A stretch of 64,000 nucleotides of DNA, from positions 1-64,000 of the IMG/VR virus record IMGVR_UViG_646311924_000007; one strand, given 5' to 3'. The stretch is from a virus. Taxonomy: Duplodnaviria; Heunggongvirae; Uroviricota; Caudoviricetes. Under the pieces are notes generated by a model. It made no database searches and had not been told where the DNA came from. It saw only the letters and a program-made list of their open reading frames with translations. Positions 1-21,891 of the stretch are shown piece after piece; positions within the stretch are counted from its first letter, which is position 1, and the number at the start of each line of letters is the position of its first letter. Both the position numbers and the translations under genes were made by a program.

Positions 1-17
1 ACATTATACGAAGTTAT
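1..17. other. loxP: partial loxP recombination site (last 4 nt of spacer plus right 13-bp arm TATACGAAGTTAT)
   Basis: Exact match to the right half of the canonical 34-bp loxP; cre follows downstream. Confidence 0.85.
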
Positions 18-29
18 CTTAAGGGTTAT

Positions 30-200
30 TGAACATGATCAATTTACCTGTAAATCCATACAGTTCAATACCTTATCAGGTCAAATAGTGATCACTTGAT
101 CATTTGATCAAGGTTGCGCTACGTAAAATCTGCGAAATGTTGGCAGTGTTAGTGCTCCAGATTTCGCGTAGCGCACTTAGCACCACCAATCAATCAGAGG
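30..200 (+). promoter_or_regulatory. lox-cre leader region with four GATC sites (37-40, 90-93, 98-101, 106-109) and an imperfect palindrome (about 117-180)
   Basis: GATC cluster and inverted repeat TGCGCTACG...CGTAGCGCA read directly; role inferred from position upstream of cre. Confidence 0.35.
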
Positions 201-206
201 TGAAAA

Positions 207-428
207 ATGGGATATTCAGCTGCTAAAGTGTCCACTCATCTTGAGCTTGAGAAAAACCGTGGTTACTGGCGGGCAAAATGGTTTGAGCGTGATAGTTACC
301 AACTGTCATTATCTCGCGGTGAAGAGAAAATAGAACGCACGCGCGGTCGCTGGCGTTTCTATGACGAGAACCATAACCAGGTAAAGGCAGAGCCAATCCT
401 GTACACTCTGCTGAAAACAATAATTTAA
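207..428 (+). CDS. hypothetical small protein (73 aa) between loxP and cre
   Basis: ORF with AGAGG-like RBS upstream; no recognisable domain. Confidence 0.4.
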   Translation: MGYSAAKVSTHLELEKNRGYWRAKWFERDSYQLSLSRGEEKIERTRGRWRFYDENHNQVKAEPILYTLLKTII

Positions 429-447
429 CTTGATCATGAGGTGATGA

Positions 448-843
448 ATGTTTAATGGCCTGACAGATGCCAAGGTAAACGCCTTACTGAACGACGCAAA
501 ACAAAAAGCTGCTAACCCTGGAACGAATGAAAATGAACGTGCTATGGCTGTTGCAATTTGGGAGTTAGCAGAAGAAGTAAAGCGAAACCGCTTACTATAC
601 ACTCGGGTTTACCAGCAATTTGATGGTGCGAGCTGGATAGATATCGAAGAGGCTGAATATGCAACATGCAAAAAAGAAAAAAAGATTGTTCGGATTTTGC
701 ATAAAGCAGCAACCCCAATCACTGTAGAAATCCCCGATCACAGATATTTCGAGAACGATGATCTACCAGGGGATGTGATTCGAATTATTGATGAGATACT
801 TCATGAACAAGGCTTAACTGTTAAAATTACGCATAATAAATGA
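448..843 (+). CDS. hypothetical protein (131 aa), stop codon overlaps the cre ATG (ATGA)
   Basis: ORF in an AT-richer patch; translational coupling to cre; no recognisable domain. Confidence 0.5.
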   Translation: MFNGLTDAKVNALLNDAKQKAANPGTNENERAMAVAIWELAEEVKRNRLLYTRVYQQFDGASWIDIEEAEYATCKKEKKIVRILHKAATPITVEIPDHRYFENDDLPGDVIRIIDEILHEQGLTVKITHNK

Positions 844-15407: not shown

Positions 15408-15662
15408 TTATCGCCTTCGTCTGCGTGCCATATATTTGCGCACCGCGCGACGTGGGCAATCTGAAGCGGTTTCTTTCTGCTGCATCAATCTTGCAGCCAT
15501 GCTCAAAAATGTCAGGCACAGCCGAAGCCCGGCATATAATAGCGGTTCCAGTGGCCACGTCTCATTGAGCACATATACCGCCATGAAAATCGAGTCGAAA
15601 ACTATCGCCGCCAGCGATAACTTCATTGTCGAAAGTCGGCGGAGCTGCCGGAGTTTATTCAT
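15408..15662 (-). CDS. small membrane protein downstream of lyz (possible lysis accessory protein)
   Basis: Hydrophobic segment and Arg-rich C-terminus; overlaps the lyz stop by 8 nt; start uncertain. Confidence 0.3.
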   Translation of the reverse strand: MNKLRQLRRLSTMKLSLAAIVFDSIFMAVYVLNETWPLEPLLYAGLRLCLTFLSMAARLMQQKETASDCPRRAVRKYMARRRRR

Positions 15663-16212
15663 TGATCAGCCCCGTCAGGCAAAGCTGGCGTTCTTTTTCA
15701 CGGCGAATCTTTAAACCTCGCAGGGGCACGCCGTTACTGTTCACAAAATCAGGGAGATGGTTACACATATTCACCCATTCCCCTTTCTGCGCCCACTTGT
15801 GGATGGACGTTTCGACTCGCATGCCTCGCGCTTTGCTGTAGTAGGTCCGTAAGCTATTGCATCCCATATTGAATGCCGCGCTTGTCATTGCACTGAAGGC
15901 ATTATCGGGCATGTCTTTGCCCCGAAAGTGCTGATTAATACAGCGTTCAGCGATCAGGATATTCTTTTCCCAATCAGCGGCGATTTGCTGGTCGGTTTTT
16001 CGCACACCCGGCGTTACCCCGTGTGTATTACCGATCCCGTCAGTCCATACCCCCGCCGGGCACATGTATGGATCACGTCGGCAACCTTCAGCGTTACCAA
16101 TCAGCTCAAGCCCCGCCTGGTTGGTTCGCACATTGCCATTACCCATCACGATGGTAATCATCACCGCGATAGCGCAAATTGCACCGCCTCCTGCGGCTGT
16201 TTTTCCCTTCAT
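15655..16212 (-). CDS. lyz: SAR-type endolysin (lysozyme), 185 aa from MKGKTAAGGG
   Basis: Near-identical to P1 Lyz as recalled, including the N-terminal signal-anchor segment. Confidence 0.9.
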   Translation of the reverse strand: MKGKTAAGGGAICAIAVMITIVMGNGNVRTNQAGLELIGNAEGCRRDPYMCPAGVWTDGIGNTHGVTPGVRKTDQQIAADWEKNILIAERCINQHFRGKDMPDNAFSAMTSAAFNMGCNSLRTYYSKARGMRVETSIHKWAQKGEWVNMCNHLPDFVNSNGVPLRGLKIRREKERQLCLTGLINE

Positions 16213-16295
16213 AAAGACCTCATAAGCGAATTTTTTACGCTCCAGGACAAACACCCATTCACAGCCAATACCGACTGACTCGATCCCTTTAGAAG

Positions 16296-16322
16296 GCACA
16301 GGATAATGCAAATCACTTGTTA
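16296..16322 (-). promoter_or_regulatory. putative late promoter (minus strand AACAAGTGATT)
   Basis: Motif about 100 nt upstream of the lyz start. Confidence 0.35.
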
Positions 16323-16345
16323 GCTACGTTTCAAAGATATACATT

Positions 16346-16362
16346 GTTGCTCTAATTATTTT
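16346..16362 (+). promoter_or_regulatory. C1 operator-like site (GTTGCTCTAATTATTTT) upstream of ssb
   Basis: Match to C1 operator consensus core TTGCTCTAAT. Confidence 0.55.
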
Positions 16363-16381
16363 ATTTTATTAGGTAAGATAA

Positions 16382-16870
16382 GTGGCACAACGCGGTGTAA
16401 ACAAAGTCATCCTGATTGGCACCCTGGGGCAAGACCCGGAGATCAGGTATATACCAAATGGCGGCGCGGTCGGAAGACTCAGCATCGCAACGAATGAATC
16501 ATGGCGCGACAAGCAAACGGGCCAACAGAAAGAGCAAACAGAATGGCATAAAGTCGTTTTGTTCGGAAAACTTGCTGAAATTGCGAGTGAGTATTTACGA
16601 AAAGGTTCTCAGGTCTACATCGAAGGGAAACTTAAAACCCGTAAGTGGACAGATGACGCCGGTGTAGAACGTTACACGACGGAAATTATCGTCAGCCAGG
16701 GCGGCACCATGCAAATGATCGGCGCTCGTCGCGACGATTCACAGTCCACAAATGGCTGGGGGCAATCAAACCAACCTCAAAACCACCAGCAATACAGTGG
16801 TGGCGGTAAACCTCAGAGCAACGCTAATAACGAACCTCCAATGGACTTTGACGACGATATTCCGTTTTGA
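16382..16870 (+). CDS. ssb: single-stranded DNA-binding protein (GTG start, 162 aa)
   Basis: Strong similarity to E. coli SSB including the C-terminal DDDIPF tail; AGGTAAG RBS. Confidence 0.95.
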
Positions 16871-17067
16871 ATGTGTAAAAAACGACTGAAAAAAAAGCGG
16901 TGGTCCAGACGCCGACAAAAGCACGAACTCGCTCAAAAACGCCAAAGTTGGCAATGGCACGCGCTTTTAACGAATAGAACACCCCGAGATATTGCTTTCG
17001 CTGGTGGGAAAACATTCCTAACCAACCTGAAGGCGCAATACATCAGTTTTTAAGCAGAGAAAAGACT

Positions 17068-17856
17068 ATGACAGCACAAAATACTAAAACCATTCAATAC
17101 CGCCTACGTAATGGCCAGAGTGTCGAAGTGACCGTCAATAATGATGGAGTGCCAGGCGAAACGGTTTCTATCTCTGATCTGGCTATCGAAAAAACCATCA
17201 TGTGCCACCTTGGCTTTACTGAAGAAGTGAGCAAAAAGCATGGTGTAGCAATCTGGAGCGCAATGGATACTGGTATGCGCAGATTCATTACTGCTCGTAC
17301 CCCAGGGATGACCATGATGGACCTCATGCAGATTGCGCCGCTGTTTGAGTGTGAACCTTTGGATGTATTCAGCAATCCAGCTATCTGCCAGCAGTTATAT
17401 GGTGAGATGAAACTCGCGGTTACCCCCATTGTGCTGCATGAAGGATCGCTTGCTGGCGTATGGAAAGTAGAGCGAATTTCAAGCTACATGCCTTTCCATG
17501 TCAACGGCGTAATCACTGGTGAAAATCAACCTGTTTCCGTTATAAAGTCAGACCTCAAGCGCGCAATTCTTGAAGCAAGTTGTCGAGTTGTCGGCCTGGG
17601 CAAACAGTCTTATGTTTCCTTCCCGGCTGGCCCTGAAGGCCCGGCAGAAATTCTGATTATGGATGCCGATCTGCTCTGGCAAATACAGTTTCTGATTGGC
17701 AAAAGCATCATCCGCGATGAAGAACTAGATCAGTACATTACCTGCACGATGACGGATGAAGTCAAAAGTGTGGCTATAGCCAATGCCCGGAACCTATGTC
17801 GTGCTGCATTAACAGAACTGCAAGAAAACACCACGGGAGAAGTGGAAAGTGATTAA
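17068..17856 (+). CDS. hypothetical protein (262 aa) downstream of ssb
   Basis: Clean ORF ending at an intrinsic terminator; no recognisable motif. Confidence 0.55.
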   Translation: MTAQNTKTIQYRLRNGQSVEVTVNNDGVPGETVSISDLAIEKTIMCHLGFTEEVSKKHGVAIWSAMDTGMRRFITARTPGMTMMDLMQIAPLFECEPLDVFSNPAICQQLYGEMKLAVTPIVLHEGSLAGVWKVERISSYMPFHVNGVITGENQPVSVIKSDLKRAILEASCRVVGLGKQSYVSFPAGPEGPAEILIMDADLLWQIQFLIGKSIIRDEELDQYITCTMTDEVKSVAIANARNLCRAALTELQENTTGEVESD

Positions 17857-17860
17857 AAAG

Positions 17861-17890
17861 AACCCGCCAATTGGCGGGTTCTTTATTTAT
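17861..17890 (+). terminator. rho-independent terminator AACCCGCC-AATT-GGCGGGTT plus U-run
   Basis: 8-bp stem followed by CTTTATTTATT. Confidence 0.8.
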
Positions 17891-18102
17891 TGAATTAGCA
17901 TTCAACTCCCGATTGTTATAGCGAACACTATGTAACAGAATAATATTATTAACATTTTAGTAATAAGTTGATTATTCATCTTCTGTATTCGCAAAGCGTA
18001 AGTATTGCTCATAGTTTCTTATTCCAGTACATTGTGATTCGTTGAGGCAAAAGAATAGTGGCAATTCTACTGGCAATAAACTCAAGTAAGAGGTTGTAAA
18101 CA

Positions 18103-18390
18103 ATGGAAAAACTGAACAATTTCTTAGACAAAATATCCACCCCAAACACTCGCGCAGGCCACACTATTACCCGCATAGCTAAGCTAAGCGATGCGGGTGT
18201 CAGTGATGACGTAATCGCACTTCAACTGTCCAGTAACAGTGCAAATGGCTTCCGATATACAGCAGATGAAATAAAAGCGTATAAGAAGCTCCACAATGAT
18301 GTAAAAACTAAAGTGGGAATTACATCCAAACAAACAAAAGCATTAATCAAAGATCAAGAGCTGACTTTTGTTGCATTGCCTCAAAACTAA
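18103..18390 (+). CDS. hypothetical small protein (95 aa) in AT-rich segment
   Basis: ORF with GAGG RBS; flanked by AT-rich DNA. Confidence 0.45.
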   Translation: MEKLNNFLDKISTPNTRAGHTITRIAKLSDAGVSDDVIALQLSSNSANGFRYTADEIKAYKKLHNDVKTKVGITSKQTKALIKDQELTFVALPQN

Positions 18391-18418
18391 ATTTGTTTAA
18401 AGCTATAGCTAACAAAGA

Positions 18419-18464
18419 GTTATAAGAGCGATAGTGATAAATTTATCATTGTCGCTCTTATAAC
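18419..18464. repeat. 46-bp near-perfect palindrome GTTATAAGAGCGA-TAG-TGATAAATTTATCA-TTG-TCGCTCTTATAAC
   Basis: 13-bp arms plus palindromic 14-bp core read directly; lies between convergent genes. Confidence 0.8.
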
Positions 18465-18593
18465 CTTGTTAAAGATAAGAATATAACCCAAAAGATATAC
18501 ATGGGTTATTAAGGCCATAATTATCAGGCAAATAACATGAAGTCGTCTATGTGATGGATGAAATTTGAACAATCAATTCTATGCCAATTCCTG

Positions 18594-18914
18594 TCAATAC
18601 AAGAGTTGGTTTACTGTTTCATCACTAAAAACCTCTTCATCGTCATCATCATCCTCATCGCCACCATCTACTGCTGGCCAATCAACAAACCAGCCAGCGT
18701 AAAGATGCAGCGTTCGGAGAACATCACTTGCGGGAGCATCAAGGGTGTTAACGAATCCCATATAGCTATTGGGATTTGCCCCAGCTATGGCTTCAGCGAT
18801 CATGTCCTCGGTAATGTCACCGGAGATAATGCTCAAACGCCCGGAAACTTCTTCATTATCATCAAATTCGATAATGGCATCTCCGCCTAATGGCGCTGCG
18901 ATTTTAATCTGCAT
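18594..18914 (-). CDS. acidic hypothetical protein (106 aa) at the 3' end of the dar operon
   Basis: ORF overlapping the ddrB stop; Asp/Glu-rich tail. Confidence 0.45.
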   Translation of the reverse strand: MQIKIAAPLGGDAIIEFDDNEEVSGRLSIISGDITEDMIAEAIAGANPNSYMGFVNTLDAPASDVLRTLHLYAGWFVDWPAVDGGDEDDDDDEEVFSDETVNQLLY

Positions 18915-21891
18915 TATTTAGCTCCTTTGCCACACCTAATAACAGTTCCAGCAATCCGTCACCATTCATCAGTGATGCGGCAGCGGCCTCTTTGTCATGA
19001 TACAACTGAAGAGCCATAGAGAATACTTCCGTTGCTGACGTTTTGGAAATAGTCGGTGATTTCTGCCGAATTTTCCCGGAATTACTTACTGAGGCTGGCG
19101 GGTATACCTTCGCCATATAAATATTACTCAATCGAGATCTGAAGCACCATTCAGGCTTGCCACGCCCACCGATATTGACGAATGATGGCTTATCCCCTTC
19201 AACATTGGCCTTCAGGAATGACTGGGCTTTCTCTAACAAACCAGGGTTACTGTACTCAAGATGATGACCCAGCTCGTGCCACAGTGCACTTGCATTTTTA
19301 TCGTTCAAATTGACAGCAACAACACCATTTAGATTTGCATATGCCCTTCCCTGGTGGTGAACTACCTTTGATAAGGTCGATATTTTCCCGCCGGTCAGGC
19401 GATAAATATCAGCAAGTTCCTTGCGCAGGTCTATCCCACCATTCTGTCCAGCGCGGACTTCTTCCACTTCTTCTGTGATAAAAGAGTCGGCCCACTCAAG
19501 AGCTTTTTCTTCAGATACGGATGAGTTTGCGATCGCACTGTTCATGGCAGATAACACTTTCTCGTGGACCGAACCCATACTTCGCTGATTCATTTGCCAG
19601 CGTGTCTGCGGGTTATATGAGAATCGCTTAAGTAGTTGGTCAAGCTGCTCAAGTTCTTCTTCACTGACATACTTTTTAGCCTCACCAATAATGCCAGGGA
19701 GAATATTGCCGTTAGGATTAAACGCTCGCGAAAGGAAGAGTTTCAGCGCCCCCATGCCCTCCGATGCTTCAATATCACCAATAACCCGGTTAACAATGGC
19801 CGCACTCTTCGGATTAGCATCCGCCAACGCTCTGGCTACGATTTGCAGGGACGATACGACCTCACGCTGCATATCAGTCCTGATCTCATCAATAAACTCT
19901 GGCGTTATGCCGTGCTCTTTAAGGATATCCCGGCCTTCCGCCGTTACCCCATCGATATCACCGACATGTTTATTAACACGACTTTGCAATGCCTTAAATG
20001 CCTTCAGAATTCCACGGGCATCATCCGCTTTACTAACGGCCTTCCTGAATGCTGGCAAGAAGTCTGAGTTAACCTCATTTTGTTGATCGGCCCACTGAAT
20101 GGAGGCTTCCTTCATCTCGTCCAGAGTCAGATCACCCAACGCGGTATGGTCTGTGAATATGAGCGATAACCTCTGAACCATTTCTGCCAATGGTGATGCC
20201 GAATGCGCCGCGCTAAGGAATGCTTTCACCCTGGTTGGGCGAATGGAAAACCAGTCAATAGCTGGTGGCATATCTCCGTTTTTTATCGCCTGCGCTATCT
20301 CGTCAAAGCCATCGCGCCCAAGGGAGGATGCGTGATTTAACAAGCCGCGAAGTAACGAATTGCTGATACCGAATAATCGGCACCATTTTTTCACGTCGGC
20401 AACAGGCATTCGAACAAAATGCGCAAGCACTTGAACAAGCTGTTCATCCTGGGGATCTGTACGGGAAAGCAGCCTGATCAGATGAATAATGTCTTTGATG
20501 CCGGATGCCCGATGTAATAGCAAGCTGGTATATGGAGCAACACCGTTGTAACTACCGCCAGAAGCTGACTCGAAAAGACCGCCAGATATCCCTTGCATAC
20601 CTTCGTTTTCCAGTTCCTGAGATACCTGGCGAAGGATATCCTGTAACGACACATCGCCGCCGCCAAACATATCCCCGAGCGCCTGGCCCTGGTGCTGTAA
20701 CTCATCATTGATACGTTGCGCCATCAACTTAAAGGCGGTGGCCATACGCTTCGCGCTACGGTTATTCGCGACGATGAACAACGCGAGTGCTTTCACTTCC
20801 GGGGCCGTTTCGCTGAACATATCCCCCTGAGCAATAACATCGGTAATATGCTGGCCTGACTCCTTCGATTGCCTTACCAGGTCTACCGCATCTTTCAATG
20901 CCGCCAGCGCCTTTTTATCGAGGCTATCCGATGTCTCAATGCCATCAACAATAGTTGTCACAGCCTGCTTGTGCGCTTCTCCTGATAAAGCCTGCATCTG
21001 GACAAAATCATTGGCTGCCGCATTAAGCGCCGTCAGAACATTACGCATATCCGGATCAGGTTCTTCTGCAACCATCCTTACCAGGCGCGCATCCTTATAT
21101 GCCTTGGCAAAGATCGCGTTTTGTATACGGTCAACAAGTTGCCGTGTTGGTCGCCCATCTTCAGTTACAAGGCCAGCCGCCTGTGTGGCACCAACTTGCG
21201 TCATAAATCCGCGAATAAACGCGTCATTACTGCGGCTAAGCAGATCTCCGCTTTCTGACGGGTTAAAAAGCGCCATCATCGCCGGTGTTATGCTGTCGGC
21301 ATCAACAAAAGCCTTTTCACTGGCTGCCATTTCCTGAAGATCAGAAATATTTGAGTCCTTGGCAAACTGAACGCGGTCAACCTTAGTTAACCGGCGGCGC
21401 ACCAGTACCGGAGCCGTCATTGATTCAACCTTTTCAGGTCGTATGCCGAATTCGGTCGCATGATCAATCAGGTACTCACGATACCGATCCGCATTGCCGT
21501 CCTGATAGGCTTTGATGATCCCCATGGTCCGTCCATTACCTGACTCAACGGCATTGTCCTCACCAATTATCGGCGCGCCATGGCTGGATAAACCGGAATC
21601 GGTAAGCTGAGCAGGCCGCAAATCTTTGGATATCTGGTTAACCTGAAGAAGGCTGGATGCGCGGGTCCGGTCGCGCGGCTGAAGTTCCTGGGGATAGTCT
21701 GGATTAATTTTCCCATCCAGAGTATTGGATACCAAAAGAACTGAGGCATCGACGATATCAAACGCTGTTTTTACCTCGTCTCCCTTCGCTGTCACCACAT
21801 ACGAAACCCGCCCATAATCGGGCAGGTTCTTTAGCAGCTCGATCAGCGTTTCTATTCTGGTGGCCATTACCACCTGATCGCTTAAGCTCAT
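18904..21891 (-). CDS. ddrB: DdrB-like protein (995 aa)
   Basis: Large ORF downstream of darA-ddrA; contains HExxH-like WHELGHHLEY motif; synteny. Confidence 0.6.
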   Translation of the reverse strand: MSLSDQVVMATRIETLIELLKNLPDYGRVSYVVTAKGDEVKTAFDIVDASVLLVSNTLDGKINPDYPQELQPRDRTRASSLLQVNQISKDLRPAQLTDSGLSSHGAPIIGEDNAVESGNGRTMGIIKAYQDGNADRYREYLIDHATEFGIRPEKVESMTAPVLVRRRLTKVDRVQFAKDSNISDLQEMAASEKAFVDADSITPAMMALFNPSESGDLLSRSNDAFIRGFMTQVGATQAAGLVTEDGRPTRQLVDRIQNAIFAKAYKDARLVRMVAEEPDPDMRNVLTALNAAANDFVQMQALSGEAHKQAVTTIVDGIETSDSLDKKALAALKDAVDLVRQSKESGQHITDVIAQGDMFSETAPEVKALALFIVANNRSAKRMATAFKLMAQRINDELQHQGQALGDMFGGGDVSLQDILRQVSQELENEGMQGISGGLFESASGGSYNGVAPYTSLLLHRASGIKDIIHLIRLLSRTDPQDEQLVQVLAHFVRMPVADVKKWCRLFGISNSLLRGLLNHASSLGRDGFDEIAQAIKNGDMPPAIDWFSIRPTRVKAFLSAAHSASPLAEMVQRLSLIFTDHTALGDLTLDEMKEASIQWADQQNEVNSDFLPAFRKAVSKADDARGILKAFKALQSRVNKHVGDIDGVTAEGRDILKEHGITPEFIDEIRTDMQREVVSSLQIVARALADANPKSAAIVNRVIGDIEASEGMGALKLFLSRAFNPNGNILPGIIGEAKKYVSEEELEQLDQLLKRFSYNPQTRWQMNQRSMGSVHEKVLSAMNSAIANSSVSEEKALEWADSFITEEVEEVRAGQNGGIDLRKELADIYRLTGGKISTLSKVVHHQGRAYANLNGVVAVNLNDKNASALWHELGHHLEYSNPGLLEKAQSFLKANVEGDKPSFVNIGGRGKPEWCFRSRLSNIYMAKVYPPASVSNSGKIRQKSPTISKTSATEVFSMALQLYHDKEAAAASLMNGDGLLELLLGVAKELNNAD

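Follow-up and report, generated by a model that had tools for sequence, protein, structure and literature searches.

A probable single-gene moron beside isaA in a known variable region of a P1-like phage-plasmid

In phage P1, the isaA-IS1-isaB segment lies between ssb and the hxr/ddrB end of the dar operon. This segment has been described as the low-GC variable region RD-2 (PMC6906374) and as the variable, low-GC 'region 2' of P1-like phage-plasmids (PMC9603915), and a CRISPR interference (CRISPRi) screen has found isaA, isaB and hxr to be non-essential in P1 (PMC10695390). We analysed the corresponding locus in a stretch of 64,000 nucleotides (nt) of phage-plasmid DNA (IMG/VR record IMGVR_UViG_646311924_000007, positions 1 to 64,000, hereafter the window), identified as a P1-like element by megablast against phage genomes. 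A preliminary description of this locus had reported two uncharacterised open reading frames (ORFs) of 262 and 95 amino acids (aa) and a near-perfect 46-bp palindrome in the place of IS1 and hxr of P1, and had suggested that the gene beside ssb could be an anti-defence or recombination accessory factor. Its observations were confirmed at the coordinates that it gave, both ORFs being present in the ORF list, and its interpretation is partly supported. The locus is a further allele of the already published variable region of P1-like elements, composed of the known gene isaA and a probable small moron; the positions of all features are collected in Table 1.

The comparison with P1 leads to a corrected reading of the locus, in which isaA and hxr are kept and IS1 and isaB alone are replaced. 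The window is 97% identical to P1 over 15600-17856 and again over 18639-19100; the homology breaks off exactly where the 262-aa ORF ends, and the P1-divergent part of the locus is restricted to 17857-18638. The order of isaA, hxr and ddrB is collinear with the P1 annotation, with isaA downstream of ssb on the same strand and hxr and ddrB convergent. The 262-aa ORF, taken earlier for a replacement of P1 genes, is thus P1's own isaA (gp017), to whose product it is 94% identical over 262 aa, in the same position after ssb. As for the P1 genes thought to have been replaced, the claim holds for IS1, to which isaB must be added, and fails for hxr, which is present. The window therefore shares with the P1 region the position between ssb and hxr/ddrB, isaA, the C1 operator and the convergent dar operon, and differs from it by the lack of IS1 and isaB, by an insert of 709 bp, by a diverged hxr 3' end and terminator, and by the closure of the start that gives a 320-aa IsaA in P1.

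The content of this slot varies among relatives. A query with the 4-kb locus matched 508 plasmids of PLSDB, with variable content from ssb to hxr. Besides the isaA, IS1 and isaB of P1, the alleles include isaA with an overlapping 364-aa gene of phrog_5902 (L004; L numbers designate the loci compared), isaA with a homologue of the HipA/YjjJ-like kinase toxins (L005 2166-3470) and a DUF2829 gene placed between ssb and isaA. Alleles without isaA hold instead an OmpC porin (L027 1005-2117) or an anti-phage dGTPase (L028 1020-2375). The slot holds both defence or conversion-type and anti-defence-type cargo, and the window adds one more allele to a documented recombination hot spot of P1-like phage-plasmids. 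We also considered P1 isaB as a fragment of the 364-aa phrog_5902 gene, which was ruled out by the lack of similarity between them.

The limits of the insert could be drawn by comparison with an empty site. In L003, isaA and hxr are separated by 29 bp that contain only a bidirectional terminator, and the window has 709 bp more at this place. The terminator of the window (AAAGAACCCGCCAATTGGCGGGTTCTTT) aligns to AAAAATCCCGCCGATTGGCGGGATTTC of L003, L004 and L005, which shows it to be a diverged allele of the backbone terminator found between isaA and hxr in empty-site relatives. On the other side, the final ~45 nt (~15 codons) of hxr, 18594-18640(-), are an alignable allele that has diverged from that of P1 and of most relatives. 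Since the terminator and the hxr 3' end are both diverged backbone alleles, the true insert is 17885-18593, spanning from the isaA terminator to the hxr stop codon, with 34.6% GC against 48.0% for the whole window. The DNA around the 95-aa ORF had been described as AT-rich, in agreement with the 29-40% GC measured over 17800-18600.

The insert is present at 98.8-100% identity in 14 PLSDB plasmids from Escherichia coli and E. albertii and in phage vB_EcoM-Ro157c2YLVW (NC_050153), with the same ORF and palindrome and with its genes annotated as hypothetical proteins. Several of these relatives, Ro157c2YLVW included, have a Tad2-like DUF2829 gene between ssb and isaA, which the window lacks. Among 5,426 complete E. 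coli genomes, the insert was found in 24 (0.44%), always on P1-like plasmids of 90-103 kb and never on the chromosome, and many of the E. coli carriers belong to Shiga toxin-producing (STEC) serotypes, with an apparent enrichment of this allele in O111, O157 and O103. No terminal inverted repeats or target-site duplication were found at its ends, and it has neither IS1 homology nor a transposase ORF, in line with the earlier remark that remnants of insertion sequences (ISs) were absent; on these grounds an IS or a miniature inverted-repeat transposable element (MITE) was rejected. The alignable diverged flanks, together with the lack of terminal repeats, point instead to an origin by homologous recombination. 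It was probably in this way that the segment 17857-18638, with its diverged terminator and hxr 3' end, came from a diverged P1-like relative; a transposition of the insert is unlikely.

We also considered whether the insert could be a mobile cassette: a miniature transposon, or a cassette of an integron whose attC-like site would be the palindrome. This hypothesis draws on the single, promoterless-looking ORF followed by an imperfect palindrome with the ends GTTAT...ATAAC, and on the occurrence of the 95-aa family in Vibrio as well. However, attC sites carry an inverse core RYYYAAC at the 5' end and a core GTTRRRY at the 3' end, whereas the palindrome of the insert (GTTATAAG...CTTATAAC) has the reversed core order and a poor fit to the consensus. 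Moreover, no integron integrase or cassette array was seen in any context examined, the ends of the insert bear no terminal inverted repeats or target-site duplication, its flanks are diverged backbone homologues that indicate homologous recombination, and in E. coli it never occurs outside P1-like plasmids. A cassette is thus very unlikely.

Morons, such as bor and lom of lambda or gp15 of HK97, are autonomous promoter-gene-terminator units inserted between conserved genes. As expected for such a unit, close relatives have or lack the insert at one exact point, flanked by conserved genes, and its GC content deviates from that of the window. It further shares with the morons of temperate phages a single gene, its own hairpin after the stop codon and an orientation opposite to the neighbouring late operon, and in two prophages the homologues of its 95-aa protein are encoded in the lysis/terminase slot that is classic for morons. 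It differs from a typical moron by the lack of a convincing promoter and of a canonical U-tract behind the hairpin. Taken together, we regard as fairly probable the reading in which the known RD-2 region carries, in this allele, isaA and a single-gene moron insulated by a hairpin. On the + strand, the moron transcript is most likely terminated and stabilised by the 46-bp hairpin. Transcription leaving hxr and the dar operon on the - strand would meet the hairpin as a first barrier and the isaA terminator as a second, and with barriers on both sides the small gene would thus be insulated from both neighbours.

The palindrome lies between convergent transcription units, as was reported earlier. 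Its arms of 23 nt are complementary at 21/23 positions (91%) with no spacer between them, and 28 nt separate it from the end of the 95-aa ORF. No other hairpin-type inverted repeat in the 64-kb window is as long, and no other site reaches at least 21/23; none of 30 composition-preserving shuffles attained this value (best 17), and the chance expectation is ~1e-5 per window. In + strand RNA both mismatches become G-U pairs, leading to a continuous 21-bp stem, and the minimum free energy of the 116-nt context is -36 kcal/mol (z -7.6); in - strand RNA the stem is followed by UCUUUGUU. When nine loci of homologues were folded, a strong hairpin of unrelated sequence directly followed the stop codon in five, and in four of these a T-run was present. 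A search of 16000-19200 against Rfam gave sub-threshold matches only, caused by the two hairpins. These features suggest that the palindrome acts as the 3' hairpin of the moron, either a terminator or a stabiliser.

The main rival to this interpretation is an operator, through which a DNA-binding protein acting as a dimer, perhaps the 95-aa protein, would control transcription from either side. A palindrome of 23+23 nt with perfect spacing in AT-rich DNA, the longest of the window, could well be such a site, and the 95-aa protein is basic (isoelectric point, pI, 9.5) and helical in its model; weak promoter-like hexamers of the minus strand also overlap the palindrome (18472-18445), and the canonical U-tract of a terminator is wanting. 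On the other hand, the palindrome lies downstream of the gene and not upstream, and its half-site does not recur in the window beyond one chance-level match with two mismatches. The compatibility of the mismatches with G-U pairing on the sense RNA points to a function at the RNA level, the unrelated hairpins found at the same position in homologues, most of them with T-runs, are typical of terminators, and the 95-aa protein matches no helix-turn-helix (HTH) model. We consider an operator quite unlikely.

The 95-aa ORF is preceded by a strong Shine-Dalgarno sequence, AAGAGG, 9 nt before its ATG. A single-sequence search with its product returned close copies and one protein at 56% identity. With a profile, 71 proteins of 62-130 aa (full-length ~103-130) and 38-58% identity were recovered from Pseudomonadota, their sources being Nitrosomonas, Pseudomonas, Xenorhabdus, Photorhabdus, Providencia, Vibrio, Massilia, Komagataeibacter and metagenomes. 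Clustered at 90% identity, the family amounts to about 70 clusters. The family alignment shows a conserved core, SRAGS-VERAGKMLEEGV-VIALQMTKNSPN-YT-DV-GKLY-DSKTKV-IT-KQTRALI-DQ, with 10 invariant columns, all of which are kept in the window protein, and by this alignment the homologues make up a real protein family. Neither the protein nor the family has a match in Pfam, PHROGs, NCBIfam, PADLOC or the sequences of the PDB. The single-sequence AlphaFold2 (AF2) model is weak, with five helices and a predicted local distance difference test (pLDDT) score of 62.6, and with this low-confidence model Foldseek found nothing in the PDB at E <1. The window protein matched no Pfam model at E up to 1, and none of 42 family members matched an HTH family at E up to 0.5. 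By eye only, TRIAKLSDAGVSDDVIALQLS in the 95-aa protein resembles an HTH.

Members of the family are found in different kinds of mobile elements. One prophage of Photorhabdus and one of Xenorhabdus carry the gene without companions and in the opposite orientation, with the lysis cassette on one side and the small terminase gene on the other. In integrative and conjugative elements (ICEs), it is located at the end of the Trb operon, adjoining DUF2274-TrbI and a 1,408-aa nSTAND3 NTPase, and it also occurs in integrase-bounded islands. The GC content of the gene was below that of the surrounding locus in six of the nine loci compared. No conserved partner of the family was found, the neighbours differing between contexts: a 100-aa ORF upstream in L006, a sigma70_r4-like ORF of 124 aa in ICEs and two neighbours of 387 aa were considered as a shared partner and proved mutually unrelated. 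The family appears as conserved mobile-element cargo without a model in Pfam, PHROGs, NCBIfam or PADLOC-DB, which would make it a cheap candidate for a defence/anti-defence screen. Since no convincing promoter is present, we can only infer that the 95-aa gene is expressed independently, that is, outside the lytic programme; we likewise infer that its product has a conserved partner, nucleic acid or protein, and serves either as a regulator or to modulate mobile-element conflicts.

Several observations weigh against a functional moron closed by a hairpin terminator. The preliminary description had called the 95-aa ORF separately promoted, which we could not substantiate: no sigma-70 site was found on the + strand upstream of the ORF by a standard consensus scan, and a relaxed scan gave weak sites matching at 8-9/12 positions. 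The palindrome is not followed by a canonical U-tract on the + strand (CUUGUU), and because of this the terminator scan made no call there; as - strand RNA it also contains two A-C mismatches. The window protein lacks ~12 N-terminal residues that most family members possess. A comparison of seven insert copies showed five substitutions within the ORF, of which four are non-synonymous, including G19D at the family-invariant G19, and one plasmid copy (NZ_CP027590.1, 89051-89833) carries a +1 frameshift. In this plasmid the insert is 1 nt longer and tblastn splits the ORF into two places at 77% identity, which could reflect a sequencing error as well as a frameshifted pseudogene. Selection on the gene may be weak in P1-like plasmids, and a link of either protein, IsaA or the 95-aa protein, to any activity is without support from homology or experiment.

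These points also bear on the possibility that the 95-aa ORF is decaying or has no function, in which case the insert would be a neutral passenger hitch-hiking in a recombination hot spot. The non-synonymous changes, including that at an invariant position, the frameshifted copy, the N-terminus shorter than in the family, the absence of a clear promoter and the occurrence in only 0.44% of complete E. coli genomes would all fit such a passenger. However, 23 of the 24 copies in E. coli, as well as those in E. albertii plasmids from several continents, have kept the frame, the Shine-Dalgarno sequence and the hairpin. None of the ten invariant columns is altered in the window copy, and five substitutions are too few for a test of selection. 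A remnant is, in our opinion, unlikely, and the moron remains the preferred reading.

Two further features upstream of the 95-aa gene were inspected. A tandem direct repeat of 10 bp, TAGTGGCAAT / TACTGGCAAT, occurs at 18056-18077, with its copies 12 bp apart, 26-47 bp upstream of the ATG. As an operator this repeat is unpersuasive, two positions that are polymorphic among the copies of the insert falling inside it. The P1 late-promoter motif (AAGTGAyTn, 4 nt, TAnnnT) had no good match by eye upstream of the ORF.

IsaA belongs to a small family, of which 1.84 billion proteins contained 41 representatives. The match of the window protein to phrog_2326 has an E of 4.4e-147 and covers positions 2-261 of the 264 of the profile. 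In the P1 annotation, isaA is the gene next downstream of ssb and is listed with 'unknown protein function'. The P1 RefSeq entry places the start of IsaA at an upstream GTG, which gives 320 aa, and the same frame is closed by a TAG in the window. The phrog_2326 profile, of 264 positions, begins with MTAQNTK. The TAG in the extension frame and the length of the profile together indicate that the ATG at 17068 is likely the true start of isaA, and the N-terminal extension of the 320-aa P1 protein (L001 5001-5174; window 16900-17067) is, from this sequence comparison, probably an over-call. Directly after the ssb stop codon (TGAATG), an ATG opens a 60-aa ORF (16871-17053, +) with a pI of 11.8, which PGAP has annotated in some relatives (WP_032163662.1, L004) and whose frame differs from that of the P1 IsaA extension; this ORF may be real or spurious.

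The lack of known function reported for both genes was borne out by profile and structure searches, in which the 95-aa protein matched no model and IsaA had phrog_2326, of uncharacterised function, as its sole profile match among Pfam, PHROGs, NCBIfam and PADLOC. For both proteins, searches of PDB sequences with single sequences and with family profiles yielded chance-level matches only. The AF2 model of IsaA is confident at residues 35-125 only. The nearest folds to this part are phage ABA sandwich domain proteins (PDB 1r7l, 4pup), at 10-17% identity and with modest scores, and IsaA differs from them by an additional C-terminal part of 130 residues, modelled at low confidence. No mechanism can be transferred from these structural neighbours, because they too have no known function. 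Neither ORF is homologous to a P1 backbone gene of known function, isaA being uncharacterised and the 95-aa ORF having no P1 homologue. isaA is a conserved P1 gene, dispensable according to the published CRISPRi screen.

As to its expression, the C1 operator reported at 16346 is located at the position homologous to P1 Ossb/Op21. The site, GTTGCTCTAATTATTTT, matches P1 Ossb in 15 of 17 bases and is predicted to bind C1, as a 17-bp asymmetric sequence in agreement with ATTGCTCTAATAAATTT at the ssb promoter. No + strand terminator was detected by the terminator scan between ssb and isaA, and a strong one follows isaA, so the proposed co-transcription of the two genes is probable. The terminator after isaA, which had been placed near 17861, has a perfect 14-bp palindrome and a stem of 12-14 bp with 7 GC pairs, followed by the T-run TTTATTTATT; such a GC-rich stem-loop with a T-run directly 3' is that of a Rho-independent terminator, and the A-run upstream of the stem makes it bidirectional. 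With no + strand terminator between ssb and itself and a strong one at its end, isaA is probably early and C1-controlled. In the proposed scheme, isaA would be transcribed with ssb from the C1-repressed promoter up to the bidirectional terminator; such control would keep it off in the lysogen and switch it on early once the phage is induced or infects a cell.

The neighbourhood of isaA in relatives offers a functional hint that can be tested for this long-uncharacterised P1 gene. In many relatives, a 225-aa gene of the DUF2829/Tad2-like family (PF11195, E 1.6e-22) is inserted at the isaA start codon within the ssb operon, and isaA resumes 7 nt past its stop codon. In others, the 364-aa phrog_5902 gene overlaps the isaA stop codon (L004 1955-3049), and its product has a weak similarity to the ATPase of the terminase large subunit (E 3.5e-9). 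The three genes recur together in a distant phage-plasmid of the C1/Cre type (L029 4332-6894), with 80%, 46% and 49% identity for the Tad2-like, IsaA and phrog_5902 proteins, at another place in the genome, where they follow cre and a dUTPase gene; the length of the phrog_5902 protein in the trio is 364-368 aa. In the window the Tad2-like gene is absent between ssb and isaA, and IsaA is alone.

The idea that IsaA, the 95-aa protein or both are anti-defence factors, with IsaA produced early from the ssb operon against host immunity, has circumstantial arguments in its favour. isaA lies within a C1-controlled early unit, a Tad2-like gene is inserted at its start codon in the same operon of many relatives, the trio with Tad2-like and phrog_5902 genes recurs elsewhere at 46-80% identity in a distant phage-plasmid, and isaA is dispensable for plaques on the laboratory host, as accessory counter-defence genes usually are. 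In addition, Tad2 has been reported in 56% of P1 phage-plasmids (bioRxiv 10.1101/2025.09.12.675607). However, neither window protein matches PF11195 (Tad2/DUF2829, anti-Thoeris), and neither has a match among the PADLOC and other defence or anti-defence models contained in Pfam, PHROGs, NCBIfam and PADLOC. The anti-defence proposal of the preliminary description is thus sustained by the Tad2-like gene before isaA in relatives and finds no support in the models, and we hold it as doubtful when stated for either protein. For IsaA, an early accessory or counter-defence role suggested by association is our tentative best guess. A wider hypothesis, to which we give little credit, is that the 95-aa family represents a new small effector of mobile-element conflicts and IsaA a part of an early counter-defence module of Tad2-like protein, IsaA and ATPase; within this hypothesis, the 95-aa protein might be an anti-defence inhibitor or a regulator of a conserved target in the host or in a rival element.

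Table 1. Features of the ssb-ddrB locus, in coordinates of the window unless a locus of a relative is named.
Feature	Position	Strand	Evidence
C1 operator, homologue of P1 Ossb/Op21, overlapping the ssb promoters	16346..16362	+	15/17 versus P1 operator
ssb	16382..16870	+	ORF; DNA ~97% identical to P1; annotated ssb in P1 and related plasmids
isaA (P1 gp017 homologue), 262 aa	17068..17856	+	P1 protein identity 94%, phrog_2326
Bidirectional intrinsic terminator, diverged backbone allele	17857..17884	.	14-bp perfect GC-rich palindrome, A-run before, T-run after
709-bp AT-rich insert (probable moron)	17885..18593	.	Absent from P1 and empty-site relatives
Shine-Dalgarno AAGAGG	18088..18093	+	Read off the sequence, 9 nt 5' of the 95-aa ORF ATG
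95-aa ORF, basic, predicted all-helical	18103..18390	+	ORF list, family profile search
46-bp palindrome, read as hairpin terminator/insulator	18419..18464	.	Inverted-repeat search, shuffles, RNA folding
hxr homologue, 106 aa, last gene of the dar/ddr operon, diverged 3' end	18594..18914	-	P1 Hxr, phrog_2292
ddrB, 995 aa, dar operon	18904..21891	-	ORF; collinear, 97% DNA identity to P1 ddrB
Tad2-like gene of relatives	L002 4169-4846; L009, L010, L011, L012 ~4-711		Insertion point corresponds to window 17068-17078

On the dar side of the locus, hxr overlaps the end of ddrB. Its product is identical to P1 Hxr at 79 of 80 positions over residues 1-80 and matches phrog_2292 at E 7e-59. The diverged 3' end of hxr includes a longer acidic run, and the whole protein is very acidic, with a pI of 4.05. 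Between the hxr stop codon and the palindrome, a hydrophobic ORF of 50 aa with a TTG start (18420-18572, -) extends into the palindrome; it lacks an obvious Shine-Dalgarno sequence and is probably an artefact of AT-rich DNA. Elsewhere in the window, a palindromic pair of half sites similar to the C1 operator, ATATTGCTCTAATAAAT / ATTTATTAGTGTAATAT, was noted at 61308-61339, and from its sequence this pair looks like a bivalent C1 operator.

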